The notes beneath the pieces were generated by a model. That model was given only the letters and a program-made list of their open reading frames with translations. It did no database searches and had not been told where the DNA came from. Made by a program: the position numbers and the translations under genes. From Candidatus Woesearchaeota archaeon (GTDB lineage: Archaea; Nanobdellota; Nanobdellia; SCGC-AAA011-G17; GW2011-AR17): a stretch of DNA of 64,000 nucleotides. The stretch covers positions 24,536-88,535 of the forward strand of contig CAYPLB010000005.1 in the NCBI GenBank assembly GCA_964411565.1, read 5' to 3'. This document shows positions 886 through 59,976 of this stretch, in pieces. The stretch's first letter is position 1, and every line of letters starts with the position of its first letter.

Positions 886-886
886 A

Positions 887-1306: not shown

Positions 1307-1616
1307 ATCTTAAGATTAGACAAATTAGTTTTAAAAAGCTTCACCAAAAAAATCGGGAAGATTTTCAGAAACACAAATCTATTTAAACTACCTCACCTTA
1401 TAACTCTATGTAAGATCTTGACCTGTTTAGGTTAAGGATTTCTAGCTCAGAAGGTCTCTCCGGCGGGGGCAGTCATTCTAACTTAGGTTCAAATTACTTT
1501 AAAATTTGAGCATCTGATTCAGGTTCAAAAAAGTAGGTTTGAATAATTCCCCTTACAAATTAAAAAATAGAGTGTAGGGGGAAACATTTAAATACTATTA
1601 ATACCTAAAGATTTCT

Positions 1617-2627: not shown

Positions 2628-2727
2628 GCAGAATAACTTAAATACCAATAAGACATATTATATTTAGCTTAATGGCATTACTCATATCTAAGTTTGAGCA
2701 ATGCATATGCAATGCATTCGGAGAGCC
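2606..2727. repeat. Intergenic repeat module R1, copy A (~121 bp; includes the last ~20 bp of the Fic CDS)
   Basis: Near-identical to 4988-5108 (2-3 mismatches); contains palindromes TGCATATGCA and AATGCATT. Confidence 0.8.
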
Positions 2728-2793
2728 TCAACAGAGACCTGCTACCTGGCGGGGGCATTATACTTCTTCTTTAGGTGACCACAAAATCTTAAA

Positions 2794-2839
2794 ATGTAGT
2801 CACCTCTAACCAAAAAGTTTAAATATGTAGTCACCTCTA
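2794..2839. promoter_or_regulatory. Two direct repeats ATGTAGTCACCTCTA (31 bp apart) plus inverted AGGTGAC/GTCACCT, just upstream of the Fic paralog 2 start
   Basis: Perfect 15-bp direct repeat at 2794-2808 and 2825-2839, ending 9 bp before the ATG at 2848. Confidence 0.3.
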
Positions 2840-2847
2840 TTATAACT

Positions 2848-3783
2848 ATGCATATTGAAAAAAGAAAAGAAAAAAATAAAATCAAATACTATTTATCTCA
2901 TTCTTATAGAGAAGGAAAAAAGGTTCATAAATTTAGGAAATATTTGGGTTTAGATTTAAAACAATCAAAACTAAAAGAAAGAAAAGAAATTGCTGAAAAA
3001 CTAATTCTAGAAGAAATTCATAAATATAACATCATAAAAGATCCTTTAGAGTTCGAACTTTCAGAAGAACAGATAAAAGAAATAGAAAAAATAGAAGCAA
3101 AAATACCTTTAAAAGTTAAACACCTTTCAAAAAAAGATTGGGAACTATTCTCTGAAATATTTACTTACAACACAAATGCTATTGAAGGTAGTCAATTGAA
3201 TCTTAAAGAAGTTAAAAATATTCTTGAAGAAGACAAATGGCCTGATAAATCTAAAGAAGACATTGCTGAAACTTATGGTGTCGAAGAGGCCTTAACTTAT
3301 ATTAGGGGAACTAAAGAACATATAAACCTAGATTTAATTAAGAAGATTCATAAAATTGTTTTTAAAAATTCAAAGAGTTTTGCTGGAAAACTAAGAAAAA
3401 AAGGGGAAGATGTTGTAGTTAAAGATAGTAAAGGAAATATTGTTCATGAGGGTGCACCTCAAGAAAGAATCAATCACTTATTAAAAGAATTAATTAATTG
3501 GTATAACAAAAATAAGAATAGATATCCTGCATTAGTTCTTGGAGCTGTTGTTCATAACCAATTTGAGAATATTCATCCATTTGGAGATGGGAATGGGAGA
3601 GTTGGAAGAATCTTATTAAATAATATTTTTTTAAAACAAGGATTACCACCAATTAATATTGATTTCAAAAATAAAGCTGAATATTATAGTTCTTTAAAGG
3701 CTTATGAAAATAAAGATCTGAAGCCTACTATTAAGCTTTTTATTAAGGAGTATAGTATTCTTAAGAAAAAATTGAAGAAGTAG
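2848..3783 (+). CDS. Fic family protein (paralog 2)
   Basis: Fic motif HPFGDGNGRVGR. Confidence 0.8.
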   Translation: MHIEKRKEKNKIKYYLSHSYREGKKVHKFRKYLGLDLKQSKLKERKEIAEKLILEEIHKYNIIKDPLEFELSEEQIKEIEKIEAKIPLKVKHLSKKDWELFSEIFTYNTNAIEGSQLNLKEVKNILEEDKWPDKSKEDIAETYGVEEALTYIRGTKEHINLDLIKKIHKIVFKNSKSFAGKLRKKGEDVVVKDSKGNIVHEGAPQERINHLLKELINWYNKNKNRYPALVLGAVVHNQFENIHPFGDGNGRVGRILLNNIFLKQGLPPINIDFKNKAEYYSSLKAYENKDLKPTIKLFIKEYSILKKKLKK

Positions 3784-3852
3784 AAAAGTACTTAAAGCTC
3801 GTCGACAACTACTATTTAAAGTTAGGGAATACCTAGATTTTCGGAGACTGTT
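3783..3852. repeat. Intergenic repeat module R2, copy A (~70 bp)
   Basis: Matches 5774-5843 with one mismatch. Confidence 0.8.
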
Positions 3853-3885
3853 CGTTGAAGGCTCACGACCGGCGGGGGCATTCTT

Positions 3886-3968
3886 ACCCTTTAATTATTG
3901 AGTTTATCTATTACAGGGTAAACTATTCTATTACCCTTCCTGAAAAGTTTTCAAAAAATAAAGGGTAA
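3886..3968. promoter_or_regulatory. Four alternating-orientation copies of the heptamer AGGGTAA/TTACCCT upstream of Fic paralog 3
   Basis: TTACCCT, AGGGTAA, TTACCCT, AGGGTAA lie within ~80 bp, ending ~35 bp before the ATG at 4001. Confidence 0.3.
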
Positions 3969-4000
3969 AATTTATAAATAGCAACTTCTTCTAAATATAT

Positions 4001-5008
4001 ATGGTATATATCTACAAAAAAGTCATCTCAGGCAAAGCCTACTACTACCTGAGAATGTCCCAAAAAACAAAAAGAAGAACTGTAACAAAAGATATTGCCT
4101 ATTTAGGAAATGATCCTTCAAAAATTGAAAAAAAATTAGATTCCCTACCTAAAATATATCAAAAAGATATTAGAAAATCTCATAGAAATATAAAAAAATT
4201 TATCACCTCAGAATATTTGGTTAAAAAAGTAAAAAAACAAAAGTTAAAAGAGATTAAACTTCTAAAAAAAGAATTACACGAAGAAGTTGAAGCAATTAGA
4301 TTACACTATAAAGATCATTTTCTTAAAGAAGATGAATTAAGTAAGGAAGAAATATACAAACACTTCTTAATCGATTTTGCTTACAATACAACTTCACTTG
4401 AAGGAAATACTATCACATTAAAAGAAACTGAAAAATTATTACAAGAAGAACTCACACCAAAGAATAGAACTTTGAGAGAAATATATGACTTACAAAATAC
4501 AGAGGCAGTTTTCTTTGAATTATTAAGTAAGAAAGAACCCATAAATGATAAATTAATAATTTGGATGCATGACGAATTAGTAAAAAATATCGATAAAAGA
4601 ATAGGATATAGGTTAGGAGATATAAGAGTTTTTAGATCGAGATTTAATGCTTCACCAGGGAAATATGTTAAGGTTGATATGAAAATACTGTTAGATTGGT
4701 ACAAGAAAAATAAGAAAAAATTACATCCAATTGTTTTAGCTAGTGTGTTTCATCAAAAGTTCGAAAAAATTCATCCTTTTTATGATGGCAATGGAAGAAC
4801 TGGAAGAATATTAATGAATTATATGTTAATGTTAGAAGGATATCCACCTCTTGCAATAAGTAAAAAAAACAGAACTGAATATTTAGATTGTTTAGCTGAA
4901 GCGAATGATGTTAATATTGATGATATAGATGAAAGAAAGTATAAAAAATTAGTTGAGTTTGTTTCTAAAGAAATGATAAGTAAATATTGGAATCATTTTC
5001 TAGTCTGA
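4001..5008 (+). CDS. Fic family protein (paralog 3)
   Basis: Fic motif HPFYDGNGRTGR; N-terminus and C-terminus (WNHFLV) match paralog 1. Confidence 0.8.
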   Translation: MVYIYKKVISGKAYYYLRMSQKTKRRTVTKDIAYLGNDPSKIEKKLDSLPKIYQKDIRKSHRNIKKFITSEYLVKKVKKQKLKEIKLLKKELHEEVEAIRLHYKDHFLKEDELSKEEIYKHFLIDFAYNTTSLEGNTITLKETEKLLQEELTPKNRTLREIYDLQNTEAVFFELLSKKEPINDKLIIWMHDELVKNIDKRIGYRLGDIRVFRSRFNASPGKYVKVDMKILLDWYKKNKKKLHPIVLASVFHQKFEKIHPFYDGNGRTGRILMNYMLMLEGYPPLAISKKNRTEYLDCLAEANDVNIDDIDERKYKKLVEFVSKEMISKYWNHFLV

Positions 5009-7489: not shown

Positions 7490-8236
7490 ATGAGATCAGA
7501 AATTTTAACATTAATTTTAGCTTCTTGTGTTGATGGAGAATTTGACACAAAAGTAAATCAAGAATCAGAAGCACCAATAGAAAAAAAATGTAGAGACCAT
7601 TACCGACCTGAGGATAAAGAAAGAGTTTTTTGGACTAATCGTTGCAGAGAAGATGGAATTTATCGCTTAGAAAGTTGGGGTCATACTATTCAAGAAGGAA
7701 TGGCTCTTGCTCGAACAAAAAACATTGATGGAAAATTAATATTTGCAGATTGTTATGGACATCATTTAGGAGATGAAGTGCATGATTTTTATGAAGCAGG
7801 AGGAACAAACGAATTTTTATCAAGTTTAGTTAAAATTGAAAAAGCTGAAGGAGGAGCATTCTTTGTCCCTTTATGTCATCTAGGTTTTTTAGGAGAATAT
7901 CAAGCAGCAGGTGGGACTATTGAAGAGATGAAAGCTTATGCTACTTTGACAGACACAAAAGGAAATTCTATTTTCTCAGGTCATAAAGCAGTTCGTTTTG
8001 AATTAGTAGGAGGTTCATTAGAAAAAGCACAAGAATTATCTAATTTAAGAAATTCTGAAGGAGATCCTGCATTCCAGATGGATTTATTATTTCCTGTACA
8101 TTATAGTGGTACACGAATTGGTAGTGAGATCTTTGAGTATCAGAAAAAAGGCGGGACTGTTGATTGTGCTAAGGAAGCAGTAACTGGTGATAGAATTTAT
8201 CTATCACAAGTTAATAATGCTTGTATAAAAAAATAA
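7490..8236 (+). CDS. Putative lipoprotein/secreted hypothetical protein
   Basis: N-terminal MRSEILTLILASC is lipobox-like; higher GC. Confidence 0.6.
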   Translation: MRSEILTLILASCVDGEFDTKVNQESEAPIEKKCRDHYRPEDKERVFWTNRCREDGIYRLESWGHTIQEGMALARTKNIDGKLIFADCYGHHLGDEVHDFYEAGGTNEFLSSLVKIEKAEGGAFFVPLCHLGFLGEYQAAGGTIEEMKAYATLTDTKGNSIFSGHKAVRFELVGGSLEKAQELSNLRNSEGDPAFQMDLLFPVHYSGTRIGSEIFEYQKKGGTVDCAKEAVTGDRIYLSQVNNACIKK

Positions 8237-8288
8237 TTTCTTTTGAAATATAGAAATTTATTTATAGTAGAGGATAAATATTTGAATT

Positions 8289-8861
8289 ATGAAATCTATA
8301 AATACACTAACTTTAGTCACATTATTGGGTTGTGGTTCAAATAGGTCTATTCCAGAACCAAAAAAGGGAAGCTTTAGAGAATATGGAATTTTTAAAACCA
8401 GTGACTCTCCTGTAACTGATCCTCTTTCATTAGCAGATTTTTTATTCACTAGTCCAAGTCAAAGAATTTGTGGTTGTCCTTATGGAGATTTTACACCTGA
8501 TAATGTAATTCCTAATGAATATTATGATATAGGACAAGTTCCTTTTGAAGTACTAATAGATGATTCTGATTATGTTGCAAATGGTGTTGGACAGAATATG
8601 TATCATGCATTTTCTGGAGAACCAACTGAAGATGGAAGAAAATCTTTTTTTAGAGTTGGAATAGTTTTCACAGGAGCTGAGTTTAGTGAAGATTTTAATG
8701 TACTAAGAGAAAATTGGCCTAATAAAGAATTTGAATTGAATAGACATAAAATGAAAGGCTGGAAATTTAACCAGAGCCAGGTTTATGAAATTGATTTAAA
8801 AAATGGTGAAGCACCAATAGATGTTTATGTTTGGAACTGTTGTCATCCAAATCAATTATAA
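8289..8861 (+). CDS. Putative lipoprotein, hypothetical
   Basis: N-terminal MKSINTLTLVTLLGCGSN carries a lipobox. Confidence 0.6.
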   Translation: MKSINTLTLVTLLGCGSNRSIPEPKKGSFREYGIFKTSDSPVTDPLSLADFLFTSPSQRICGCPYGDFTPDNVIPNEYYDIGQVPFEVLIDDSDYVANGVGQNMYHAFSGEPTEDGRKSFFRVGIVFTGAEFSEDFNVLRENWPNKEFELNRHKMKGWKFNQSQVYEIDLKNGEAPIDVYVWNCCHPNQL

Positions 8862-8883
8862 TTTCATGAAATTTTATAGAAGA

Positions 8884-9291
8884 CTAAAGTTTAGTTTCTA
8901 AATCTGTAGTTTTCCCTGACCGAAATCTTTCATAACCCTCACTCATTGTATTTGTAATTACTGGAATAGTTAAGACCAAAGGATTGTCAACAACAAAATC
9001 AAGAATTTGGGAATTAAAAACTAGTAAGCTAGCTCCTGTAAACAAGGAACCAATTCCCATAACAGGAGATTTTGTCCAATAGTTTGCAAAACTATCTAAT
9101 CCTAAATAATTTCTTCCTTCTTCTTGTGCTTTAGCATACTCTTCCTTTGTTCCTCTTACAAAAGTAGGAACAACTAAACAAGCAACAGGCAAGGCTAGTG
9201 CCCCTTCAAAAAAATCCTTAACAACTCCACCAGTTCCTCTAATAGTACCATACAAAGAACTAGAATTTAAATTATAATTTTGATTTTCCAT
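8884..9291 (-). CDS. Hypothetical protein
   Basis: 135-aa ORF with a hydrophobic segment. Confidence 0.45.
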   Translation of the reverse strand: MENQNYNLNSSSLYGTIRGTGGVVKDFFEGALALPVACLVVPTFVRGTKEEYAKAQEEGRNYLGLDSFANYWTKSPVMGIGSLFTGASLLVFNSQILDFVVDNPLVLTIPVITNTMSEGYERFRSGKTTDLETKL

Positions 9292-9422
9292 ATTATTTCA
9301 AGAAAAATTTATTAATAGACCTTTATAAAAATTTCCATTTACAGAACCTCTGTGTTCCTTAAATCTCATTTAAATTCAATTAACAATATATATAAACATC
9401 AAATAAAAAACTTTTTTATAAA

Positions 9423-9839
9423 ATGGTTTCAGCAAACTTATACATAGGAAATAATTTATCCCTTGAAAATTTTAATAAATATCTTCAAAGAGAATTTACA
9501 GAAAAGGGTATAACTGTAACAGATAAACTTTATTTAAGAAGAACTTCTGAATATCATTCTCTTCTTGTTTCAATTATTTGTGAAGAAAATTTAGGAGAAA
9601 CAGTTGATAGAGCTTTATCAAATGCTTCAAATAAATTAAAAGAAAAATCTTGGAGAAGAAACATACGTAAACAAATTTATGATGGCAGTAGTAATTTTAT
9701 AATAATTGGTGAATATCAAAATGACACTAGAGCTTCAGAATTATTCCTTACTATTGCAAAAAATGAACTTGAAAGAAGTATCAAACTTCAACTTCATGAT
9801 CAACAAGATATTGAAAGAAGAACAAGATCTTTGAGATAA
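9423..9839 (+). CDS. Hypothetical protein
   Basis: 138-aa ORF; no recognised motif. Confidence 0.45.
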   Translation: MVSANLYIGNNLSLENFNKYLQREFTEKGITVTDKLYLRRTSEYHSLLVSIICEENLGETVDRALSNASNKLKEKSWRRNIRKQIYDGSSNFIIIGEYQNDTRASELFLTIAKNELERSIKLQLHDQQDIERRTRSLR

Positions 9840-9909: not shown

Positions 9910-11952
9910 ATGTGTGGAATAATTGGTATATTTGGAGAGAATTCAAAGATTGAAGTAGAAAAATCTCTAGAATTATTAAAAAATCGAGGAAGAGACAATC
10001 AAGAGATTTATGAAGGAGAAAATTTTACTTTAGGTCACACATTACATTCTGTTGTTGGTTTTACAAAACAACCAATTATTGGAAAAGGAATTTTAACTGC
10101 AAACTGTGAGATTTATAATTGGAAAGAACTTGGAAAAGGAGATAGTGATTCAAAAATTTTATTCAATTTATTAGAAAATAATGATATTGAAGAAGTACTA
10201 AAAAAATTAGATGGTGTTTTTGCTTTCGCATATTATAAAGATAATAAAATCTACTTAGCAAGAGATATAATTGGAATCAAACCTCTTTGGTATACTCACA
10301 CTGACACTTTTGCTTTCGCATCAGAAAAAAAAGTTTTAGAAAATTTAGGCTACTTAAACATTCAAGAATTAAACCCTAGAGAAATATTAATTTATGACAA
10401 AGAAAAAGATAAAATAACTATAAAGAAAAGAAACTTTTTCACAATAAAACCAGAGATTCAAGATTCTAAAGAAATTATTTTAGAGAATTTAGAAAAATAT
10501 TTTATTAATGCTATCAAAAAAAGAATTCCAAGCAAAAAATTTGGAGTTTTATTCTCTGGAGGAATTGACAGCACTTTATTATCTTATGTAATCAAAAATT
10601 TGGGCAATAATTTCACATGTTACCTTTCAGTTTTTGACCATCCAGATTTAAAAGAACCTGAAGATTTAACTTATGCTCAAGAGATTGCAAAGGAATTAAA
10701 CTTTAATTTAGAAATTGTAAAAATAAGATTAGATGAAGTAGAACCATTACTAAAAACTATAGTCCCTTTAATTGAAGATTCAAATGTTGTTAAAGTTGGA
10801 GTAGCATTAACCTTCTTTGCAGCTTGTAAAAAAGCTAAGGAAGATGGATGTAAAGTTATTTTCTCAGGTTTAGGTTCAGAAGAAATATTTGCAGGTTATG
10901 AACGACACAAAAATTCTAGAAATGCTAACGAGGAATGTCTCTCAGGTTTACTAAAAATGTATGAAAGAGACACTTACAGGGACGATGTAATTACAATGTT
11001 TAATGAATTAGAATTAAGACTACCTTTCTTAGACAAAAAATTAGTAAATTTTGCATTGAGAATTCCAGAGAAATACAAAATTAATGAAGAACAATCAAAA
11101 ATAATTTTAAGAGACTTAGCAATCAAATTAAAACTTCCAGATAAATTCTCACAAAGAAAGAAAAAAGCAGCACAATATGGTTCAAACTTCCACAAAGCTC
11201 TAAAAAAATTATCAAAGAAAGATAATCATAAACTAATCTCTTCATACTTAAAACAATTTTATCCTCAAAAGAACATGAAGTTAGCAGCTTTAGTTAGTTC
11301 TGGCAAAGATGGCATTTATGCAATGTACACAATGATGAAACAAAATTATGAAATATCTTGCATGCTTACAATAAAAAGTAAAAATTTAGACTCATACATG
11401 TACCATACTCCAGCAGTTGATATTGTAAAACTTCAATCAGAATCAATAGGAATACCTTTAATGATTCAAGAAACTGAAGGAAAAAAAGAAGAAGAGTTAG
11501 AGGATTTAAAAAAAATCCTAAAAGAAGCAAAAGAGAAATATCAAATTGAAGGAATTATCACAGGAGCTTTATTTTCAAATTACCAAAGAGAGAGAATAGA
11601 AAAAGTTGCAGACTCATTATCATTAAAAATATTTTCACCTTTATGGCATATGAACCAAGAAACTGAGGTAAGAGAAATCATAAATAAAGATTTCAAATTT
11701 ATTATAACAAAAGTTGCTGCTGATGGTTTAGATAAATCTTGGTTAAACAAAGTAATTACTGAGGAAGATTTAAAGAAATTAGTAAATCTAAATGAAAAAA
11801 TGGGATTTAATATCGCTGGTGAGGGAGGAGAATTTGAAACACTAATGATTGACGGTCCAATTTTCAATAAAAAAATTCAAATTGAAGATTTTGAAATAGA
11901 AGAAGATGGTATTGTTGGTACATTAAAAATAAAAAAAGCTAAATTAATCTAA
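9910..11952 (+). CDS. Fusion protein: an asparagine synthetase (AsnB)-like glutamine amidotransferase joined to a C-terminal diphthine-ammonia ligase (Dph6/MJ0570-like) domain
   Basis: N-terminal MCGIIG (Ntn class-II GATase nucleophile Cys2) and PP-loop SGGIDST. From about residue 458: MKLAALVSSGKDG...DSYMYHT...GEGGEFET, matching the conserved Dph6/DUF71 ATP-pyrophosphatase motifs. A single continuous 680-aa ORF. Confidence 0.75.
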   Translation: MCGIIGIFGENSKIEVEKSLELLKNRGRDNQEIYEGENFTLGHTLHSVVGFTKQPIIGKGILTANCEIYNWKELGKGDSDSKILFNLLENNDIEEVLKKLDGVFAFAYYKDNKIYLARDIIGIKPLWYTHTDTFAFASEKKVLENLGYLNIQELNPREILIYDKEKDKITIKKRNFFTIKPEIQDSKEIILENLEKYFINAIKKRIPSKKFGVLFSGGIDSTLLSYVIKNLGNNFTCYLSVFDHPDLKEPEDLTYAQEIAKELNFNLEIVKIRLDEVEPLLKTIVPLIEDSNVVKVGVALTFFAACKKAKEDGCKVIFSGLGSEEIFAGYERHKNSRNANEECLSGLLKMYERDTYRDDVITMFNELELRLPFLDKKLVNFALRIPEKYKINEEQSKIILRDLAIKLKLPDKFSQRKKKAAQYGSNFHKALKKLSKKDNHKLISSYLKQFYPQKNMKLAALVSSGKDGIYAMYTMMKQNYEISCMLTIKSKNLDSYMYHTPAVDIVKLQSESIGIPLMIQETEGKKEEELEDLKKILKEAKEKYQIEGIITGALFSNYQRERIEKVADSLSLKIFSPLWHMNQETEVREIINKDFKFIITKVAADGLDKSWLNKVITEEDLKKLVNLNEKMGFNIAGEGGEFETLMIDGPIFNKKIQIEDFEIEEDGIVGTLKIKKAKLI

Positions 11953-12628
11953 GTATCCCTTCTCCAAATTCTGTAGCAGCTTCTGGTCCACTTCCTGTGA
12001 TAATATTATCATCTACAGTAACTCTTTCTCCAGTGAACTGTGCACCATTGCTTACTAAATTACTTTCTTCACTTGGATATGCTGTAGCTTGTTTTCCATC
12101 TAACAAACCTGCATTAGCTAATATAGAAGGTGCAATACAAATAGCTCCAACTAATTTATTCTTAGAGTGTGCTTCATTAGCTAAACTCCATGCTTTTTCA
12201 TCATTGAAAAACATAGTAGCACCAGTTCCACCTACAAAAATTAAACCTTCATAATCATCAACATTAATTTCTGAATAATCTAAATTTACTGAGACTGCTG
12301 CACCTAACATTCCAGTAGCCATATCTGTATCTTTTGAAGCCACAACAACTTCTATTCCATTATTTTCTAGAACATCCATAGGTTCTAATAATTCCTCATC
12401 TCTAAATTGATCAGGAGCCACAATCATAACAACTTTCTTTCCCATTTCATTTACCTCAACATTTTCTTCAAGAACTTCATCTACTGTTTCTTCAACATTA
12501 TCTTCTGTATCTATAACTTCCTCAACATTAATATCTTCTTCTACTATATTATTATCTATTGTATCAATATCATTACTCGCACATGATGCTAATATTAGCA
12601 ATAGAGATATTATCACGATCTTTTTCAT
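11939..12628 (-). CDS. DJ-1/PfpI family protein with N-terminal lipoprotein signal and acidic linker
   Basis: Lipobox-like MKKIVIISLLLILASCASN, then a D/E-rich low-complexity stretch. The DJ-1/PfpI core follows (AICIAPS nucleophile elbow Cys, FVGGTGA). Confidence 0.7.
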   Translation of the reverse strand: MKKIVIISLLLILASCASNDIDTIDNNIVEEDINVEEVIDTEDNVEETVDEVLEENVEVNEMGKKVVMIVAPDQFRDEELLEPMDVLENNGIEVVVASKDTDMATGMLGAAVSVNLDYSEINVDDYEGLIFVGGTGATMFFNDEKAWSLANEAHSKNKLVGAICIAPSILANAGLLDGKQATAYPSEESNLVSNGAQFTGERVTVDDNIITGSGPEAATEFGEGILRLI

Positions 12629-12707
12629 ATTTCATTTTAATCTTCTTTAATATTTAAAACTTTTCAAAACCATAAACCTTATAAAGGATATATGAAACAA
12701 GATTCAT

Positions 12708-13001
12708 ATGTTATGCAAATCATACAATACATTTTTTCAGAACTTCGCAAATAGAACTAATTTGGAAATCATTTTTTTATTACAAAAGGGCCAAATGAAT
12801 GTATCTAGTATTGTTGAAAAAACTGGAATTGAACAAAGTGCTGTCTCACACAACTTAAAGAAACTAACAGAATGTAACATCTTAACTGTTGAACAAAAAG
12901 GTAGAGAAAGACTTTATTCATTAAATAAAGAGACTGTTCAACCATTATTAAAATTAGTCCAAAATCATGTTGAAAAAAATTGTAAAGGTTGTGAAAAATG
13001 A
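12708..13001 (+). CDS. ArsR/SmtB family winged-helix transcriptional regulator
   Basis: HTH region SSIVEKTGIEQSAVSHNLKKL; ATGA overlap with the downstream iscS. Confidence 0.6.
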   Translation: MLCKSYNTFFQNFANRTNLEIIFLLQKGQMNVSSIVEKTGIEQSAVSHNLKKLTECNILTVEQKGRERLYSLNKETVQPLLKLVQNHVEKNCKGCEK

Positions 13002-14185
13002 TTCCTAAAGATATTTACTTAGATAATGGAGCTTCAACTAAGGTTGATGAGAAAGTATTAGAAGAAATGCTTCCATATTTTTCAAAACATTATGGTAATG
13101 CATCTTCAGCTCATTCATTTGGTTACGAAGCTAATCAAGCTTTAGATAAAGCAAGAAAAGTTATTGCAAAATCAATCAATGCAGAATTTGAAGAAATAGT
13201 TTTTACTTCTGGTGGAACTGAATCAAACAATGCAATAATCAAAGGTATTGCTTTCGCAAACAAAGACAAAGGAAATCACATTATCACTTCAAAAGTTGAG
13301 CACAAATGCATTGTAAAGGCTTGTGAATGGTTAGAAACTCAAGGTTTTGAAATAACGTATTTAGATGTAGATGAAGAAGGTTTTGTGAATCCTGAGGAAT
13401 TAGAGAAAGCAATCACAGAAAAAACTATATTATTTTCAGTAATTCATGCAAACAATGAGATTGGTACAATTCAAGACTTAGAAGCTTTAGGTAAAGTTTG
13501 TAAAAAACACAATGTATACTTTCACACCGATGCTTGTCAAAGTTATACAAAAGTTGACATTCATGTAAAGAAACAAAACTTAGATCTTTTAACAATAAAT
13601 TCTCACAAAATTAATGGACCAAAAGGTGTTGGTGTAATGTATGTTAAACAAGGAACAAAAATAACTCCTCTTTTACATGGTGGTGAACATGAATTCAAAA
13701 AAAGAGCTGGCACAGAAAACATTCCAGGTATTATTGGCTTTGCTTCTGCTGTAAAACATGCTCCAACAAAAAAAGAAATTGAAAAAATGTCAGAATTAAG
13801 AGACAAATTAATTGATGGAATTCTAAAAATTGAAGCAACAAAGTTAAATGGTTCAAAAGGAGAAAATAGATTATGTAATAACATTAATGTTTCATTTGCT
13901 GGTATCGAAGGTGAAGCAATTGGTGGATATTTAGATCAAAAATTTATTTGTTCATCTACAGGCTCTGCATGTTCAGAAGCATTATTAGAACCTAGTCATG
14001 TTTTAATGGCTATAGGCCTATCACATGAAGCTGCAAATGGAAGTTTAAGATTAACATTAAGTAAATATTCTACAGAAGAAGACATAAACAAAACTTTAGA
14101 AGTTATTCCTAAAGTTGTAAAAAAGCTAAGGAAAATATCTCCTTTTGGGAAGGTAGTAGACTATGTATTCGGAAAAAACAATTAA
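12998..14185 (+). CDS. iscS: Cysteine desulfurase IscS/NifS
   Basis: SGGTESNN, the PLP-lysine context SHKINGPKGVG, and a C-terminal catalytic Cys loop (SSTGSACS). Confidence 0.85.
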   Translation: MIPKDIYLDNGASTKVDEKVLEEMLPYFSKHYGNASSAHSFGYEANQALDKARKVIAKSINAEFEEIVFTSGGTESNNAIIKGIAFANKDKGNHIITSKVEHKCIVKACEWLETQGFEITYLDVDEEGFVNPEELEKAITEKTILFSVIHANNEIGTIQDLEALGKVCKKHNVYFHTDACQSYTKVDIHVKKQNLDLLTINSHKINGPKGVGVMYVKQGTKITPLLHGGEHEFKKRAGTENIPGIIGFASAVKHAPTKKEIEKMSELRDKLIDGILKIEATKLNGSKGENRLCNNINVSFAGIEGEAIGGYLDQKFICSSTGSACSEALLEPSHVLMAIGLSHEAANGSLRLTLSKYSTEEDINKTLEVIPKVVKKLRKISPFGKVVDYVFGKNN

Positions 14186-14534
14186 ACATTTTAAAGAACC
14201 AAAAAATGCAGGAGAAATGCAAAATCCTGATGGTGTTGGTGAAGAAGGAGGTTTCAAGTGTGGTGATGCGATGAAGATTTTCATTAAAGTAAAGGATAAT
14301 ATAATCACAGAAATTAAATTCTTAACATATGGATGTATTGCAGCAATAGCTTCAACAGACATACTTTGTGAAATGGCAAAAGATAAAACATTAGAAGAAG
14401 CAGAAAATATTTCAGCTAAAGAGATTGCAGAAGAATTAGGAAAACTTCCAGATATAAAATTCCATTGTTCAATTATGGGACAAAAAGCATTAAAAAGAGC
14501 TATAGAAGATTACAAAAATAAAAATGATAACTAA
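14163..14534 (+). CDS. iscU: Fe-S cluster scaffold IscU/NifU
   Basis: MYSEKTIKHFKEPKNAG...GCGDAMK, LTYGC and HCS motifs with three conserved Cys. Confidence 0.85.
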   Translation: MYSEKTIKHFKEPKNAGEMQNPDGVGEEGGFKCGDAMKIFIKVKDNIITEIKFLTYGCIAAIASTDILCEMAKDKTLEEAENISAKEIAEELGKLPDIKFHCSIMGQKALKRAIEDYKNKNDN

Positions 14535-15606
14535 AGAAGTAAAAGAATTAATGGAAAAACAGCAATACAGAATTGTTGGCTCACATAGTGCTGTAAAAGT
14601 TTGTGGCTGGGCTAAAAAAATGATTCGTGGTGAAGGAGGCTGTTATAAATTAAAGTTCTATGGTATTCGAAGCAACCAATGTTTACAAATGTCTACTAGT
14701 TTAAGTTGTGCAAACAGGTGTATTTTTTGTTGGAGAGATTACAAAGCTCCTGTATCAAAAGAATGGATTGGAGAAATTAATGATCCTCAAGAAATTATCG
14801 ATGGTGCAAAAGAAGCACAAAAAGAATTACTTTCAGGATTTGGCGGACATCCAAGTACAATTAAAGAATTAAAAGATGAATCAAAAACAGTAAAACATGT
14901 AGCTCTTTCATTAACTGGAGAAGCAATTAATTATCCCAAAATAAATGAGATCATAGAATTATTCCACAAAGAAAAAATTTCAACTTTCTTAGTTACTAAT
15001 GGTCAATATCCAGAAGAAATAAAAAATTTGCCAAGAATAACTCAATTATATATCAGCTTAGATGCACCAAACAAAGAAATTTTAAAAAAAGTTAGTCAAC
15101 CTTTATTTACAGATCATTGGGAGAGATTAAACAAAAGTTTAGAATATCTTTCACAGAAAAAAGAAAGAACTTGTTTAAGATTTACTTTAATGCGAGAGAT
15201 CAATATGTGTGACTTAGAAGGTTACTCTAAATTAATCAAAAAAGGAGATCCAGACTTCTTAGAAATAAAATCATACATGTTTGTAGGATCCTCTCGTCAA
15301 AGATTAGATTTAAAAAATATGCCTTTCCACGAGGACATGGTAAATTTTTCAAAAGCTTTAGTAAAATACCTTCCAGATTATGAAATTGTAGCAGAACATA
15401 TTCCTTCAAGAATTGTTTTACTTGCTAAAAAGAAATACAAACAAGATGGAAAATGGCATACATGGATTGATTTTGATAAATTTTTCAACAAAGAAGAAGA
15501 TTATTCTAGAGAAACACCTGACACAGGTATTAGTGGCAAAGGAACAAAAGATAGAATGAAAGTTGATGAAAAGACTGATGAGCTTGAATTCTGGCAAGAA
15601 GATTAA
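14524..15606 (+). CDS. taw1: Radical SAM tRNA 4-demethylwyosine synthase (TYW1/Taw1)
   Basis: Radical-SAM CANRCIFCW motif, with an upstream Cys cluster and a VKVCGWAKK region typical of the TYW1 family. Confidence 0.7.
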   Translation: MITKEVKELMEKQQYRIVGSHSAVKVCGWAKKMIRGEGGCYKLKFYGIRSNQCLQMSTSLSCANRCIFCWRDYKAPVSKEWIGEINDPQEIIDGAKEAQKELLSGFGGHPSTIKELKDESKTVKHVALSLTGEAINYPKINEIIELFHKEKISTFLVTNGQYPEEIKNLPRITQLYISLDAPNKEILKKVSQPLFTDHWERLNKSLEYLSQKKERTCLRFTLMREINMCDLEGYSKLIKKGDPDFLEIKSYMFVGSSRQRLDLKNMPFHEDMVNFSKALVKYLPDYEIVAEHIPSRIVLLAKKKYKQDGKWHTWIDFDKFFNKEEDYSRETPDTGISGKGTKDRMKVDEKTDELEFWQED

Positions 15607-15974
15607 GGAAAATCAATTGGAAATTTTTTTGTTTTATATACAGCAGGTAACACAACAAAGTGATGAAATAAATCTGATAATGCTATAGCAAATCCTATTT
15701 CAAATAAACTTACTGTTAAAGGAAAAATAAAAATAGAACTTTCAAGAGCAACAACTGGAGTAACATAAAATAAACCTACAATAGCTATCAAGATTCCAAA
15801 ATACATATGATGGATTCTAATTGGCAAATGTAATTTATGCTGAACTCTCTTACTATGTATTCCTGTACTAAACCTAAGAAATGCTGTAATAAATTCAATC
15901 AAAATTGCTAAACCAATTATAAAAGACCAATCCATAATTATATATAGTAAAAATAACTTTATATATTTTACCAA
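15603..15974 (-). CDS. Small integral membrane protein, hypothetical
   Basis: Three or four hydrophobic helices. Confidence 0.4.
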   Translation of the reverse strand: MVKYIKLFLLYIIMDWSFIIGLAILIEFITAFLRFSTGIHSKRVQHKLHLPIRIHHMYFGILIAIVGLFYVTPVVALESSIFIFPLTVSLFEIGFAIALSDLFHHFVVLPAVYKTKKFPIDFP

Positions 15975-15975
15975 A

Positions 15976-16476
15976 ATGATAAAATATTGCCCTGATTATA
16001 TATTCAATTCAGTAAAGGATATCGATGAAAAAATATTAGAAAATAAAAAATTAATAATTTTTGATATAGATAACACCTTATTTTATCCAGAAACTACAAA
16101 TATTGATAAATCTATTATAAATTGGTATAAAAAATTCTCAAAAAAACACAAATCTATTTGTATTTCAAACTCAAAAACAATAAAACAAAGAGAAGCTGCA
16201 ATAAAAAAAGCAATTAATTGTGAACTTTTCATTACTGGATTAAGAAAACCTTCTAAAGAATTATTCAATAAAGTTACAAAAAATTACAAAGTTGAATCAA
16301 AAGATATTGTGACTATAGGGGATTTTTACTTTACAGATGTATTATTTGCAAAAAAAAATAATGCCACAGGAATATTAGTTAGACCTTTTGCTCCAAATGA
16401 AAATTTTTGGGTAAGCATAGGTAGACTTATAGACAATACAATAATAAACTTTTTAACTATATTCATGAAAAGATAA
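15976..16476 (+). CDS. HAD-superfamily phosphatase (YqeG-like)
   Basis: HAD motif I LIIFDIDNTLF; small size. Confidence 0.5.
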   Translation: MIKYCPDYIFNSVKDIDEKILENKKLIIFDIDNTLFYPETTNIDKSIINWYKKFSKKHKSICISNSKTIKQREAAIKKAINCELFITGLRKPSKELFNKVTKNYKVESKDIVTIGDFYFTDVLFAKKNNATGILVRPFAPNENFWVSIGRLIDNTIINFLTIFMKR

Positions 16477-16480
16477 GACT

Positions 16481-17164
16481 ATGAAAAACTTTGAATCAGA
16501 AATATTGGAAAAAATAGAATACACAGAAGATGTAATTTTACTTAAATTATCAACTCCAGAAGACTTTACTTTTGAAGCTGGACAATATATTAGCATAGAG
16601 ATAGAAAAAGACAATAAAAAAGAGTTGAAATGTTATTCATTATTGAATCCACCTTCAGAAAAAGGAATAACTCTTTGTATTAGATTAATTCCTGGTGGTT
16701 TTGCATCAGAATTCTTTAAAGAGGTAAAATCAGGAGATAAACTTTACGTTAAAGGTCCCTTAGGTTTCTTCAAATTCCAGGATAAAGAAGATATTGATGA
16801 ATTTTGTTTCTTAGCTGTTGGTACTGGTGTTGTTCCAATGATTTCAATGATAAAAGAGAATATTACTGAATATCCAAATAAAAAATTCACATTAATTGTT
16901 TCATATAAACTAAGAAAAAACATGTTAAATCATGAAGAATTATTAGAATTAGAGAAAAATAATAAAAACTTTGAATATCATCCTACTATTACTAGAGAAG
17001 AATGGGATGGTAAAAAAGGTAGAGTAACTTTACATTTACCTGAAGTAATAAAGAAAAAAGTGTTTTATATTTGTGGTCTAAAAGAAATGGTTATTGATAC
17101 AAGAAAGACTCTTATTGAGAGAGGTGTTGACCCAAAAGATATTAAACAAGAAAGGTTTTCATAA
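16481..17164 (+). CDS. FAD/NAD(P)-binding oxidoreductase (ferredoxin-NADP reductase-like fold)
   Basis: FAD-binding GQYISIEI, NAD-binding FLAVGTGVVPM, and a C-terminal YICGLKEM. Confidence 0.55.
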   Translation: MKNFESEILEKIEYTEDVILLKLSTPEDFTFEAGQYISIEIEKDNKKELKCYSLLNPPSEKGITLCIRLIPGGFASEFFKEVKSGDKLYVKGPLGFFKFQDKEDIDEFCFLAVGTGVVPMISMIKENITEYPNKKFTLIVSYKLRKNMLNHEELLELEKNNKNFEYHPTITREEWDGKKGRVTLHLPEVIKKKVFYICGLKEMVIDTRKTLIERGVDPKDIKQERFS

Positions 17165-17182
17165 TACTAGGAGAGGGATAAA

Positions 17183-18649
17183 ATGAAACTAAACGTAGAA
17201 TCTAAATTAAAAGAGGCAGATTTAACTGTTCTTGGTCTTTTTGAAGAAGACAAACATAATTACAAAGACTTTAACAAAAAATTATCTGAGGAGATTTCAG
17301 ATGCAATTTCAAAGAAAATGTTTACAAAGAAATTTGGTCAAGCATATACAAGTAATATAAACAATTCTACAAAAAGAGTTCTAATATTAGGTTTAGGTAA
17401 GAAAAAAGAATTCACTTTAGAAAAATTTAGAAAATCTTTAAACAAATCCTTAAAATATGCAAGATCAAGAAAATCTAAATCTCTTTCAACAAATCTATTA
17501 AAAATTTCAAATTTCAACACTAATTTATTAGGTAGGGCTACAGCTGAAGCTTTTCTATTATCTGAATATCTTTTTGATAAATACATAACTCCAGATAAAG
17601 ATAATCCTAAAGTTAACTTAAAAGATATATATTTAGAATATTCAAACAGTAAGGATTTACTAAAGGGATTGAAAGAAGGTGAGATCATTGCTAATGCAAC
17701 AAACTTCGCAAGAGACTTAGTAAATGAACCTGCAATTGAAGTAACTCCTTCATACTTTGAAAAACTTGCAAAAAATATTTCCAAGAAAAACAAATTATCT
17801 TTAACTGTTCTTAACAAAAAAGATATGATTAAATTAGGGATGGGTGGACTTTTAGGTGTAACAGCTGGTTCAGACCAAGAACCTAAATTATTAATTTTAG
17901 AATATAAAGGCTCAAATGATAAACCTATTGCTTTAGTAGGTAAAGGTGTAACTTTCGACGCTGGTGGATATAATTTAAAACCTTCTGGTTACATGGAAAC
18001 AATGAAATGTGATATGGGTGGAGCTGCAGCTGTTTTTGGTGCTATAAAAGCTGCTTCAGAATTAAAAGTAAAAAAACATATTATTGCTTTAATGCCACTA
18101 TGTGAAAACTTAGTTAATGGTTCAGCTTACAAACCTGGTGACATTTTAACTGCTTACAATAAAAAAACAATTGAGATTGGCAACACAGATGCAGAGGGTA
18201 GATTAATTCTTGCAGATGCAATTAGTTATGCTGAAGAAAAATATAAACCTAAAATACTAATTGATTTAGCAACTTTAACTGGTGCATGTGTTGTAGCTTT
18301 AGGTGAACAAATCTCAGGTTTAATGTCTAAAGATGATAATTTATCTAAAGAACTTGAGGATGCAGGTTTAACAAGTCATGACAGAGTTTGGAGACTTCCT
18401 ATGTTAGAAGAATATCAAGATGCAATGAAAGGTTCAATTTCTGACATAAAAAATATTGCTCCAAGATCTCATGGTGCTGGTGCAATCACAGCTGCTGTTT
18501 TCTTAAGTCATTTTGTAGATACTGAGAAAACTCAATGGGCTCACATTGACATTGCAGGTCCTGCTTTCATAAGTGAAGATAGAGATTATTTAACAAAAGG
18601 TGGAACTGGTGCTGGAGTTAGGTTATTATCTTATTTTTTAAGTAAATAA
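17183..18649 (+). CDS. pepA: Leucyl aminopeptidase, M17 family
   Basis: M17 signature NTDAEGRLILADA, plus VGKGVTFDAGGYNLKP. Confidence 0.8.
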   Translation: MKLNVESKLKEADLTVLGLFEEDKHNYKDFNKKLSEEISDAISKKMFTKKFGQAYTSNINNSTKRVLILGLGKKKEFTLEKFRKSLNKSLKYARSRKSKSLSTNLLKISNFNTNLLGRATAEAFLLSEYLFDKYITPDKDNPKVNLKDIYLEYSNSKDLLKGLKEGEIIANATNFARDLVNEPAIEVTPSYFEKLAKNISKKNKLSLTVLNKKDMIKLGMGGLLGVTAGSDQEPKLLILEYKGSNDKPIALVGKGVTFDAGGYNLKPSGYMETMKCDMGGAAAVFGAIKAASELKVKKHIIALMPLCENLVNGSAYKPGDILTAYNKKTIEIGNTDAEGRLILADAISYAEEKYKPKILIDLATLTGACVVALGEQISGLMSKDDNLSKELEDAGLTSHDRVWRLPMLEEYQDAMKGSISDIKNIAPRSHGAGAITAAVFLSHFVDTEKTQWAHIDIAGPAFISEDRDYLTKGGTGAGVRLLSYFLSK

Positions 18650-18659
18650 AATAAAAAAA

Positions 18660-19103
18660 TTATTTCTTTTTCTTCTTCTTTGTTTTACTCTGAAAGTATG
18701 CTTTTCCTTCTTCATTAAATCCTAAATAGTAGACTATTCCACCATTAATTAATAACTTTATTGGCGAAAATATAAAATCTCCACTCGCAATCCCAGTTAA
18801 ACTACTTAGTAAACCTACTGATGAAAATACTAAAGCAACTATCCATGCCCAATATTTACCTTGTCTCAAAGCTTTTGCAACAACAAAGTACAATATTGAA
18901 AATACAGCAATAATAAGACCTAAAACAATTAATCCTGCAGTTCCAAGAATACTCATCCAAGCTTGTTCGAGTTCAATAATATTGACCACAATACTACCAC
19001 CAACAGCAAATGCTAAAGCCATTAACATTAAAACTGCTGCAATAATAAAGTAATACAAAGAAACTATTTTTACTCCTTTCGGAATAAGTTTTTTCTTTAC
19101 CAT
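18660..19103 (-). CDS. Membrane protein, hypothetical
   Basis: Four predicted TM helices and a poly-K C-terminus. Confidence 0.45.
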   Translation of the reverse strand: MVKKKLIPKGVKIVSLYYFIIAAVLMLMALAFAVGGSIVVNIIELEQAWMSILGTAGLIVLGLIIAVFSILYFVVAKALRQGKYWAWIVALVFSSVGLLSSLTGIASGDFIFSPIKLLINGGIVYYLGFNEEGKAYFQSKTKKKKKK

Positions 19104-19124
19104 TTAATAAAAAAAGTAAAAAAA

Positions 19125-19691
19125 CTATTTAAGTCTTTTCTCTATTTCTTCCCAATTAACATTTTTTAGAAAACTATCAAGATATGCTCTTTTTCCTAAA
19201 CCATAATCCTTAATGAAAGCATGTTCAAAAACATCCATAACTAACAAAGGAATTGCTCCAGCTAGATGTCCACCATCATGTTCATTTATCCAAGTATTAA
19301 ACAATTTTCCATTTACAGGATCATAAGCTAAAATTACCCATCCTATTCCTCTCATACTTGCACCAGCTCTAAAATCACATTCCCATTCACCAAAATTTCC
19401 AAAACTTTCAATAATTTTCTTTCCTATTTTTGAATCTTCATTTAATTTCTTTCCACCATTTACTAAATTACCAAAATATAACTCATGTAATCTCATTCCA
19501 TTAAATTCCCATCCAAATCTCCTTCTCAACTCCGAAAATTCTATACAATTATTAGTCATTACTTTCAAAGTTTTGATTAGTTCATTTGTATTTTTCACAT
19601 ATCCACTATACAACTTAAAGTGGTCTTTCAACATTTCATCTGAAAAACCTTCCATTCCCAATAAATGAGAAAAATCTTTTTCTTCATACAT
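19125..19691 (-). CDS. Fe/Mn superoxide dismutase-like protein (divergent N-terminal metal site)
   Basis: C-terminal DVFEHAFIKDYG corresponds to SOD DVWEHAYY; the N-terminal HH-x-KHH is degenerate (HFKLYSGYV). Confidence 0.6.
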   Translation of the reverse strand: MYEEKDFSHLLGMEGFSDEMLKDHFKLYSGYVKNTNELIKTLKVMTNNCIEFSELRRRFGWEFNGMRLHELYFGNLVNGGKKLNEDSKIGKKIIESFGNFGEWECDFRAGASMRGIGWVILAYDPVNGKLFNTWINEHDGGHLAGAIPLLVMDVFEHAFIKDYGLGKRAYLDSFLKNVNWEEIEKRLK

Positions 19692-19704
19692 TTTTTCTTC
19701 CTCC

Positions 19705-20262: not shown

Positions 20263-20265
20263 TTT

Positions 20266-59223: not shown

Positions 59224-59277
59224 TTATTTTTACCTCATAATTATACTCCCAAAAAAATAGAAAGGAATATTTAAAAG

Positions 59278-59973: not shown

Positions 59974-59976
59974 TAC

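Follow-up and report, generated by a model that had tools for sequence, protein, structure and literature searches.

In glutamine-dependent NAD+ synthetase and GMP synthetase, NH3 released by a glutaminase travels along a tunnel to an ATP-pyrophosphatase of the PP-loop type, where a carboxylate or carbonyl has been adenylated. These enzymes have one PP-loop site, whereas the protein analysed here has two in series. The reaction concerned is the last step in the formation of diphthamide, an EF-2 modification conserved between archaea and eukaryotes. The stand-alone archaeal Dph6 proteins, represented by PH1257 (PDB 2D13) and PF0828 (PDB 3RJZ, 3RK0, and 3RK1), are single domains of about 225 aa without a glutaminase in the chain, and their assignments still await experimental confirmation (PMC8305020). 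The eukaryotic enzyme (yeast YLR143W) consists of a DUF71 domain and two C-terminal RidA/YjgF domains (PMC3541065, PMC3585130); as far as Su et al. (2012) are cited in PMC3585130, yeast Dph6 is active with free ammonium in vitro.

The closest described system is a fusion of AsnB (GAT-II plus Asn_Synthase_B_C) with DUF71, reported from Methanohalophilus mahii, Methanosalsum zhilinae, and 'Ca. Nanosalinarum sp. J07AB56' (de Crécy-Lagard et al. 2012, Biol Direct 7:32, Fig. 2C, PMC3541065). It was placed in "a few Archaea", and it was proposed that glutamine hydrolysis supplies NH3 to the fusion; a reviewer of that paper asked which of the PP-loops uses the NH3 and which reaction the AsnB-like one carries out (PMC3541065).

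The window, i.e., the whole stretch of 64 kb analysed in this work, derives from a 28%-GC Woesearchaeota-like DPANN genome, unlike the examples of 2012. It harbors one ORF with the following features:

9910..11952, plus strand: three-module fusion ORF, with an ATG start, a TAA stop, 680 aa and zero internal stops
9910..10464, plus strand: class-II (Ntn) glutamine amidotransferase domain, residues 1-185, placed by Pfam GATase_6/7 and residue mapping
9913..9915, plus strand: codon of the nucleophilic N-terminal Cys2 (Cys in 117 of the 118 sequences aligned for the family)
10465..11259, plus strand: AsnB-like PP-loop (Asn_synthase) domain, residues 186-450, placed by Pfam/NCBIfam, the fold match and the C-termini of unfused relatives
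10555..10572, plus strand: first PP-loop, SGGIDS, residues 216-221, invariant in the family
10789..10800, plus strand: VKVG, residues 294-297, where AsnB has TTIR; K295 is invariant
10870..10872, plus strand: Leu321, a tunnel-exit residue where AsnB has its catalytic Glu348 (human Glu-364); Leu in 117 of 118
11260..11274, plus strand: junction YPQKN, residues 451-455 (about five residues), from the AsnB-like end to the first Dph6 strand
11275..11949, plus strand: Dph6 (diphthine-ammonia ligase, DUF71/Diphthami_syn_2) domain, residues 456-680, Met456 being the first, placed by profiles and structures
11296..11313, plus strand: second PP-loop, SSGKDG, residues 463-468, a variant of the family S[S/G/T]GKD[S/G]
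11821..11838, plus strand: EGGEFE, residues 638-643, the Dph6-type E-G-G-(D/E)-x-E signature, from motif comparison

The earlier note had read this ORF as a glutaminase followed by an AsnB-type PP-loop domain and a Dph6/MJ0570 domain, and every detail of that reading is backed by Pfam, NCBIfam, and structure matches. The five motifs that it quoted were all found in the translation (MCGIIG at residues 1-6, SGGIDST at 216-222, SGKDG at 464-468, DSYMYHT at 494-500, and GEGGEFET at 637-644), and the Pfam search that it proposed recovered the boundaries of the three modules. GATase_7 matches residues 53-144 (8e-19) and GATase_6 residues 29-139; Asn_synthase matches residues 197-339 and a second stretch (1.5e-41); Diphthami_syn_2 (PF01902) matches residues 456-678 over positions 1-218 of its 219 (4.6e-66), with 222.9 bits against a cutoff of 23.2. 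All these matches are far above chance, and the presence of two ATP-pyrophosphatase modules in one polypeptide is agreed upon by profile, sequence, and fold matches. The AsnB-like domain ends in the tail SYLKQF, which is the stopping point of stand-alone relatives, and the three modules are similarly constrained, with 22-26% of the positions conserved in at least 97% of the sequences. The AF2 model of the 680-residue protein is confident and compact (pLDDT 92.2, pTM 0.89). Thus, we are highly confident that an AsnB-family amidotransferase and an archaeal Dph6 are combined in a single chain.

This architecture, which the same note believed to be undescribed, was published in 2012 (PMC3541065); proteins of this kind are annotated by NCBI, under the name "diphthine--ammonia ligase", and by JGI. 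The fusion class of 2012 is defined by one ORF in which a GAT-II domain is followed by an Asn_synthase PP-loop domain and then by a DUF71 domain; the window protein shows exactly this arrangement, with the same proposed meaning. Both the fusion and the hypothesis attached to it were therefore available in the literature from 2012 on, and what the window offers is a further member of the class rather than a discovery. What is added here is that the fusion is the dominant form of Dph6 in Woesearchaeota-like DPANN, and that its AsnB-like half belongs to a clade whose sequences lack the catalytic signature of asparagine synthetase.

Regarding the distribution of the fused form, an identical sequence is present on an independent ENA contig (P0002), and a full-length orthologue sharing 91% identity was found in the MAG SI037S2_bin4 (L001). 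More than 110 full-length relatives (54-65% identity) have the same domain set; almost all of the best 80 align over the full query, and most of these are from Woesearchaeota/Nanoarchaeota MAGs. Overall, relatives occur in at least 530 GTDB species-representative genomes, so that what was known from "a few Archaea" is here the standard form. Among the nearest 150 representatives at 50% identity, 53 are fused, high-GC archaeal lineages included. A few fused forms (P0129 and P0181) lack Cys2.

The C-terminal domain was assigned to DUF71/Dph6 in the profile searches, in agreement with what had been supposed. In addition to the PF01902 match over the full profile, the NCBIfam model TIGR03679 (Dph6_archaeal) matches residues 459-677 over positions 1-218 of its 218, with 275 bits against a cutoff of 197.3, whereas other DUF71 models remain far below theirs (PAB0415_fam, 76 vs. 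250; TTX_0299, 45 vs. 250). Residues 456-680 align end to end with the stand-alone archaeal proteins: the E value is about 1e-54 with 2D13/3RJZ, and the superposition on PH1257 gives a TM of 0.94 and an rmsd of 1.2 A at about 41% identity. The N-type ATP pyrophosphatase fold with its PP-loop is present according to the PH1257/PF0828 match. The nine residues of PF0828 named as Dph6-specific, i.e., S44, Y45, E78, Y103, Q104, A149, E183, E186, and E188 (de Crécy-Lagard et al. 2012, PMC3541065), are all kept, as S495, Y496, E529, Y558, Q559, A604, E638, E641, and E643, respectively. The motif E-G-G-(D/E)-x-E is that of Dph6, whereas the non-Dph6 DUF71 group has ENGE(F/Y)H (PMC3585130). The second PP-loop reads SSGKDG in the window protein and SGGKDS in PH1257/PF0828; this exact variant is shared with 8 of 118 relatives and with the orthologue L001.

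Residues 1-450 match E. coli AsnB and human ASNS best, both in sequence and in fold (1CT9 and 6GQ3; target-normalised TM, 0.77-0.79). The fold matches also included beta-lactam synthetase, carbapenam synthetase, and TsnB9. The two-domain fold, the Cys nucleophile, SGGxDS, and most tunnel-lining residues are shared with AsnB (1CT9) and ASNS (6GQ3/8SUE), while the identity is about 24% and the window protein is about 100 residues shorter. The glutaminase residues N65, E67, and D80 are kept (equivalents of E. coli AsnB N74, E76, and D98). The position of E. coli AsnB Arg49, which we take to bind the glutamine carboxylate in 1CT9, is occupied by L45 in 115 of 118 sequences, and the following residue, His46, is invariant.

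The differences extend to the synthetase site. Glu348, the TTxR motif, and Lys376 of E. coli AsnB are presumably the residues of aspartate adenylation, Glu348 being, as we understand it, essential for the formation of beta-aspartyl-AMP; none of them is retained in the window protein. Glu348 is replaced by Leu321 in 117 of 118 aligned sequences, TTIR (321-324 in the 1CT9 chain numbering) by VKVG, and K376 by Gly346 in 113 of 118; moreover, D351 is replaced by E, and human A404 by an invariant Asp358. The replacements of Glu348, TTIR, and K376 occur in the fused and in the unfused members of the clade. On the other hand, the equivalents of D384, R387, and K449 are conserved, and SGGxDS, R357, and K418 are invariant. 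Since the Glu, Thr/Arg, and Lys needed for beta-aspartyl-AMP formation have been lost, the AsnB-like domain is probably not a canonical asparagine synthetase; most likely it still binds ATP, because its PP-loop is intact and constrained. These residues speak against the assumption of the earlier note that the N-terminal part is AsnB proper.

As to the unfused relatives, a sequence was counted only if it terminated in the conserved tail [DE]Y[LV]xS[LF] or if its contig had been inspected. The signature residues of the AsnB-like clade are shared by about 27 complete GAT+synthetase representatives that stand alone and by about 19 synthetase-only representatives; neither group has a Dph6 domain. 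P0121 and P0131 were not included, being fused genes truncated at contig ends. A single glutaminase-less synthetase-Dph6 fusion (P0239) was found. In the three contigs read (P0140, P0157, and P0258), no Dph6 gene was found near the unfused AsnB-like gene. Whether relatives carry the two halves separately had been raised as a check: unfused AsnB-like proteins do exist, but the more than 110 full-length relatives are fused. By its sequence signature, then, the AsnB-like half falls into a clade of its own, which also occurs unfused and glutaminase-less, and since this clade is devoid of the catalytic signature, the "asparagine synthase" label on these genes is probably wrong.

These data allow three alternative identities to be weighed. 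A sequencing or assembly frameshift, or a chimera joining adjacent asnB-like and dph6 genes, would be compatible with the Dph6 domain opening with Met456, as a separate gene would, and nothing else speaks for it; the frame is continuous, the independent contig is identical, the 91% orthologue extends over the full length, and the fusion recurs with this short junction in hundreds of independent assemblies. This recurrence led us to reject the artefact, whose probability is practically nil; the test that the earlier note had set for itself thus leaves the fusion real. It is also very improbable that the C-terminal domain is a non-Dph6 DUF71 protein (of the group linked to B12 salvage, or one of the PAB0415/TTX_0299 paralogues) unconnected with diphthamide. 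The window, which contains no dph2, dph5, or EF-2 gene, would agree with such an assignment, which was nevertheless rejected given the profile scores on either side of the respective cutoffs, the nine Dph6-specific residues together with EGGEFE, and the close match to PH1257. A bifunctional protein, in which the N-terminal 450 residues are a true asparagine synthetase (EC 6.3.5.4) and the fusion to Dph6 has no mechanistic meaning, has more in its favor: AsnB and ASNS are the best matches, the score with TIGR01536 (253.4 bits) falls narrowly under the cutoff of 267.1, the D384, R387, and K449 equivalents are kept, and some members are named asparagine synthase in JGI. We consider it improbable all the same, as neither AsnB equivalog model gives the protein a score above its trusted cutoff (with PRK09431, 223.1 against 499), and the replacements of Glu348, TTIR, K376, and R49 are found in fused and unfused proteins alike.

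The best explanation, in which we place about even confidence, is that the window protein represents diphthamide synthetase in its Woesearchaeota/DPANN form, a fusion of natural origin whose Dph6 site would be fed by glutamine. According to the knowledge available on the family, the Dph6 domain would bind ATP and adenylate the diphthine carboxylate on EF-2, and ammonia would then displace AMP to yield diphthamide. The N-terminal module would hydrolyse glutamine at Cys2, and the NH3 would travel through the conserved hydrophobic AsnB-type tunnel to the attached Dph6 site as its nitrogen source, so that the enzyme would be glutamine-dependent instead of relying on free ammonium. The AsnB-like PP-loop might serve in gating or extending the tunnel, or might catalyse a second adenylation reaction. 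The use of glutamine-derived ammonia for diphthine amidation is plausible, being consistent with the Cys nucleophile, the tunnel residues, the five-residue junction, and the confident compact model; that the ammonia from the glutaminase truly feeds the Dph6 site is a slightly more tentative claim, falling just short of even. In both the window protein and yeast YLR143W, the Dph6 domain is fused to a proposed ammonia source, although the partner in the latter is RidA, is C-terminal, and brings no second PP-loop, whereas that in the former is AsnB-like and N-terminal. The ammonia-supply hypothesis itself was already published independently (de Crécy-Lagard et al. 2012). If true, a glutamine-dependent, channelled Dph6 would settle the nitrogen source of the last step for a large archaeal clade, and the protein would be a rare enzyme with one glutaminase ahead of two PP-loop sites.

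The residues lining the putative tunnel were compared with the list available for human ASNS (PMC11615228). The correspondences, from human to window protein, are V119 to V103, V141 to V/I123, R142 to K124, L255 to L214, M344 to F302, S362 to S319, D405 to D359, E414 to E368, and L415 to L369, and the residues of the window protein at these positions are almost all invariant. In total, 9 of 11 tunnel or gate positions of this predicted tunnel are conserved or conservatively replaced in the residue alignment, and the Glu at its exit is swapped for a hydrophobic Leu. The replacement of Arg49 by Leu in 115 of 118 sequences is an observation that counts against the ammonia-supply reading, and so is the in vitro activity of yeast Dph6 with free ammonium.

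The main competitor of a glutamine-fed Dph6 site is a protein made of two independent amidoligases, in which the AsnB-like part amidates a non-aspartate carboxylate of its own and Dph6 uses free ammonia, as it presumably does in the stand-alone archaeal proteins, with no channelling; the fusion would then derive from co-expression, from a shared target (e.g., EF-2 or another component of translation), or from genome compaction. To our knowledge, the tunnel in every characterised AsnB-family enzyme ends at its own PP-loop site, and the tunnel predicted here leads to the AsnB-like PP-loop site as well. This PP-loop and several adenylate-binding residues are invariant; a passive conduit would not need such a site, which counts against a role in supply alone. 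The orthologues that consist of GAT+synthetase or of the synthetase only, which carry this signature and have no adjoining Dph6 in the contigs read, the existence of a GAT-less synthetase-Dph6 fusion, and the variety of substrates accepted by AsnB-fold enzymes (beta-lactam synthetase, carbapenam synthetase, and TsnB9) point in the same direction. Judging from the alignments, the invariant AsnB-like PP-loop and the glutaminase-less and unfused relatives sit awkwardly with pure ammonia supply. Against the two independent amidoligases, the gene context offers no candidate substrate; a five-residue junction, a pTM of 0.89, and a fusion kept in at least 530 species go beyond casual co-expression; and the loss of the tunnel-exit Glu would equally fit a site turned into a conduit. 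Overall, we hold this alternative to be possible but not the one to be preferred. Because of P0239, P0129, P0181, and the synthetase-only forms, the conserved link is that between the synthetase domain and Dph6, which does not strictly depend on the glutaminase. A further reading, which we regard as rather unlikely, is that the AsnB-like PP-loop domain is not an asparagine synthetase, and no mere linker either, but a second catalytic site partnering Dph6 on the same target, or else a former active site that now forms the middle part of an unusually long ammonia path from the glutaminase through PP-loop 1 to PP-loop 2. If true, those members of the clade that stand alone would be partners of archaeal Dph6 that have escaped notice or enzymes with an amidation reaction not yet described, and the reviewer's question of 2012 would be answered.

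Lastly, the gene context was analysed. No dph2, dph5, or EF-2 gene was found in the 64-kb window, in which about 60 ORFs were scanned with profiles and the remainder read by eye; dph genes have been reported in DPANN, Woesearchaeota Dph5 included (PMC6143161). Likewise, no conserved diphthamide-related neighbour was found across 80 related loci. The immediate neighbours in the window (DJ-1/PfpI, ArsR, NifS, NifU, and Tyw1) are not kept at the related loci. The recurrent neighbours of the 80 loci are a small MscS-like membrane protein (23/80), a prefoldin-like protein (23/80), and a DRG-type GTPase (20/80), which we read as synteny of related genomes. The stand-alone and synthetase-only orthologues lie in similar neighbourhoods, including the DRG GTPase, the small MscS-like protein, prefoldin, and Cbf5.

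The fusion gene is a single uninterrupted open reading frame:

9910-11952, plus strand: fusion ORF of 680 aa that runs from ATG to TAA without a stop codon in between.

The five motifs from which a class-II glutaminase, an AsnB-type PP-loop domain, and a Dph6 domain had been read were all found (residues 1-6, 216-222, 464-468, 494-500, and 637-644), and the Pfam/NCBIfam domain search upheld this three-module reading. In Pfam, the GATase_6/GATase_7 match lies at residues 29-144, the Asn_synthase match begins at residue 197 (1.5e-41), and Diphthami_syn_2 takes up residues 456-678 (4.6e-66; profile positions 1-218 of 219). Among solved structures, residues 1-424 come closest to E. coli AsnB and human ASNS (E ~1e-27) and residues 458-679 to PH1257 and PF0828 (E ~1e-54); no solved chain spanning all three modules was retrieved among the structure sequence and fold matches. 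Conservation is similar across the modules, with 22%, 26%, and 24% of the positions, respectively, at least 97% conserved. The chain of stand-alone relatives stops at positions matching residues 445-450 (SYLKQF), and the junction is represented only by YPQKN (451-455), between this end and Met456, at the first Dph6 strand. The AlphaFold2 model (alignment of 113 family sequences) has a mean pLDDT of 92.2, a pTM of 0.89, and no segment below 50, values which indicate that the modeled modules hold a defined arrangement relative to each other. Met456 (11275-11277) is the exact start of the Dph6 domain, and its position is occupied in the family by Leu, Val, or Met, the residues of TTG, GTG, and ATG; it may be a leftover of the ancestral dph6 start codon.

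An identical sequence (P0002) is present on an independent ENA contig, and a full-length orthologue with 91% identity lies at locus L001 of the MAG SI037S2_bin4. The same domain set was found in more than 110 full-length relatives (54-65% identity). When the GTDB species, each represented by one genome, were scanned with two peptides specific to the family (YERD[LTM]YRDD and GSEEIFAG), at least 530 genomes proved to carry a relative; nearly all of the best 80 matches align over the whole query, and most of these 80 bear the label Woesearchaeota, Nanoarchaeota, or Nanoarchaeia. In a library of 1.8 billion proteins clustered at 50% identity, the Dph6 domain occurs in 53 of the 150 nearest representatives, some of them on high-GC archaeal contigs of very different composition; the features of the window are archaeal and DPANN-like (28% GC, split RpoB, RpoH, tRNA-splicing endonuclease and, by eye, Alba). 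Given the identical copy, the 91% orthologue, and this recurrence in independent assemblies, the objection of a frameshift, chimera, or assembly split fails, its probability being practically nil, and the fusion is one real gene.

The fusion is, thus, a real feature that had been read correctly, but it is already known. The earlier note was wrong in holding the architecture to be undescribed, since a COG0367/AsnB domain N-terminal to the DUF71 domain, including that of "Ca. Nanosalinarum sp. J07AB56", and the ammonia rationale were both published in 2012 (De Crécy-Lagard et al., Biol Direct 7:32; PMC3541065), and the proteins are routinely annotated: many full-length relatives are named "diphthine--ammonia ligase" at NCBI and "asparagine synthase" or "diphthine-ammonia ligase" at JGI. 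In 2021, the archaeal Dph6 assignments still awaited experimental confirmation (PMC8305020). A literature search found no later paper resolving the question left by a reviewer in 2012, i.e., which PP-loop uses NH3 and what the AsnB-like one catalyses. The remaining interest lies in the role of this additional PP-loop and in the likely mis-annotation of the clade as asparagine synthase.

Judged from its sequence, the Dph6 half is orthodox. With 275 bits, the C-terminal domain clears the cutoff of the archaeal Dph6 equivalog TIGR03679 (197), and it falls far under the cutoffs of the PAB0415 and TTX_0299 paralogue models, so that a DUF71 protein other than Dph6 is very improbable. Moreover, the protein has all nine PF0828 residues named in 2012 (PMC3541065), which vary little or not at all in the family, and the E-G-G-(D/E)-x-E motif, which sets Dph6 apart from other DUF71 proteins (PMC3585130), reads EGGEFE. 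The modeled domain superposes on PH1257 with a TM of 0.94 and an rmsd of 1.2 Å. These data bear out the match to Dph6 that had been proposed. The PP-loop is SSGKDG, within a family pattern S[S/G/T]GKD[S/G]; this exact variant also occurs in 8 of 118 relatives and at L001.

The AsnB-like half falls under both AsnB equivalog cutoffs of NCBIfam (253 < 267 and 223 << 499).

E. coli AsnB residues and their equivalents in 118 fused family members
Cys1: Cys2 (117/118), kept
N74, E76, D98: N65, E67, D80, kept
SGGxDS PP-loop: residues 216-221, invariant, kept
D384, R387, K449: D354, R357, K418, kept
R49: Leu45 (115/118), followed by an invariant His46, replaced
TTIR motif: VKVG, with Lys295 invariant, replaced
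E348: Leu321 (117/118), replaced
D351: Glu324, replaced
K376: Gly346, replaced

In AsnB, the formation of beta-aspartyl-AMP requires E348 and the TTxR residues. Of the tunnel and gate positions listed for human ASNS (PMC11615228), V119, V141, R142, L255, and M344 correspond to V103, V/I123, K124, L214, and F302 in the family, and S362, D405, E414, and L415 to S319, D359, E368, and L369; Leu321 takes the place of Glu-364 at the tunnel exit, and an invariant Asp358 that of Ala-404. According to this mapping, the glutaminase, the lining of the tunnel, and the binding of ATP seem to be preserved, and the first PP-loop site has changed in its chemistry relative to AsnB. The identification of the N-terminal part as AsnB proper did not hold: on residue evidence it is no canonical asparagine synthetase, and a genuine one is unlikely in view of the sub-cutoff scores and the replacement of E348, TTIR, and K376 (as well as R49).

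The analysis establishes the architecture, the assignment to Dph6 from sequence and fold, the presence of a divergent yet intact AsnB-family module, and the recurrence. The best, albeit tentative, reading is that glutamine-derived ammonia feeds the Dph6 reaction, because the fusion is tight and massively conserved, the tunnel exit has a hydrophobic replacement, and the aspartate-specific residues are gone. The N-terminal module would split glutamine and carry NH3 at least to its own PP-loop site, and the Dph6 domain would adenylate and then amidate diphthine on EF-2. The main alternative, possible if rather doubtful, is a chain of two amidoligases that work independently, the AsnB-like one on some other carboxylate; it is favored by the invariance of the first PP-loop and by the existence of stand-alone and glutaminase-less variants; the tight fusion and the altered tunnel exit speak for ammonia transfer to Dph6.

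About 27 of the 150 nearest representatives are complete GAT+synthetase proteins with an MC start and a conserved [DE]Y[LV]xS[LF] tail, and about 19 are complete synthetase-only proteins of about 300 aa; the others without Dph6 are fragments, and some seemingly unfused entries, e.g., P0121, are fused genes broken off at a contig end. The non-canonical signature is common to all variants: the E348 position has Leu or some other residue that is not acidic, Lys295 is present, and K376 is absent. As to whether relatives carry the halves separately, unfused AsnB-like genes do exist: P0140 (L081 10001-11350, 1.07-Mb contig) and P0157 (L084 8001-9359, 90-kb contig) are genuine stand-alone GAT+synthetases, and no dph6 adjoins them within 8-10 kb. 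The synthetase-only P0258 (L082 8001-8903) has only 218 bp upstream, so a glutaminase gene could not fit. P0239 (JGI 3300042731, 3.8-kb contig) is a glutaminase-less Asn_synthase-Dph6 fusion with a divergent upstream gene 58 bp away. Cys2 is missing in a few fused forms, the N-terminal Cys being replaced in P0129 and P0181 (MTRI...); P0141, with 1005 aa, is extended N-terminally by about 340 aa. The neighbor types common to stand-alone and fused genes (DRG GTPase, small MscS-like protein, prefoldin, Cbf5) suggest that they are orthologues set apart by fusion or fission events. In 80 related loci, the conserved neighbors included no diphthamide gene. P0258, P0140, and P0157 are annotated as "asparagine synthase" though they lack the AsnB catalytic Glu; this DPANN clade is probably systematically mis-annotated.

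The surroundings of the gene in the window include:

28-885: truncated N6-adenine DNA methylase
887-1306, minus strand: RadC-like JAB protein
1617-2627, 2848-3783, and 4001-5008: three tandem Fic/DOC-domain paralogues
45079-45152: tRNA-Met
57127-59223, minus strand: membrane H+-pyrophosphatase
59898-59974: tRNA-Asp
60377-61864 and 61861-63663, plus strand: split RNA polymerase subunit B, 4-nt overlap

The left edge (28-5008) is a small mobile- or defence-like islet. Directly upstream of the fusion gene, four ORFs in a row (7490-9839; 248, 190, 135, and 138 aa) remained unmatched in Pfam, and two of them start with a lipoprotein-like signal sequence. Directly downstream, a redox/Fe-S cluster (11939-20986) embeds, by profile scan, a DJ-1/PfpI protein with a lipoprotein-like N-terminus, an ArsR regulator, a NifS-type cysteine desulfurase, a NifU scaffold, the Tyw1 radical-SAM wyosine enzyme, an FNR-like oxidoreductase, and an M17 aminopeptidase; superoxide dismutase, peroxiredoxin, thioredoxin, and a Fur-like regulator were recognized there by eye only. 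In relatives, this set of genes is not conserved beside the fusion gene. On the minus strand, 33532-35037 encodes a 501-aa protein without a Pfam match, which starts like a signal peptide and has Cys-rich regions and a long poly-Glu "EEVEE/EEIEE" repeat, and 35072-36721 a DEAD-box helicase with a C-terminal low-complexity tail of about 190 aa (RGG/"GNRNSN" repeats), unusual for an archaeal one. RpoH and the split RpoB follow the H+-pyrophosphatase on the plus strand (57127-63663). Lastly, the sign of the GC skew tracks the coding strand, being positive to about 18.6 kb, strongly negative at 18.6-59.7 kb, where the minus strand holds nearly all genes, and positive again past 60 kb, which is probably a coding-strand purine bias rather than a replication landmark.
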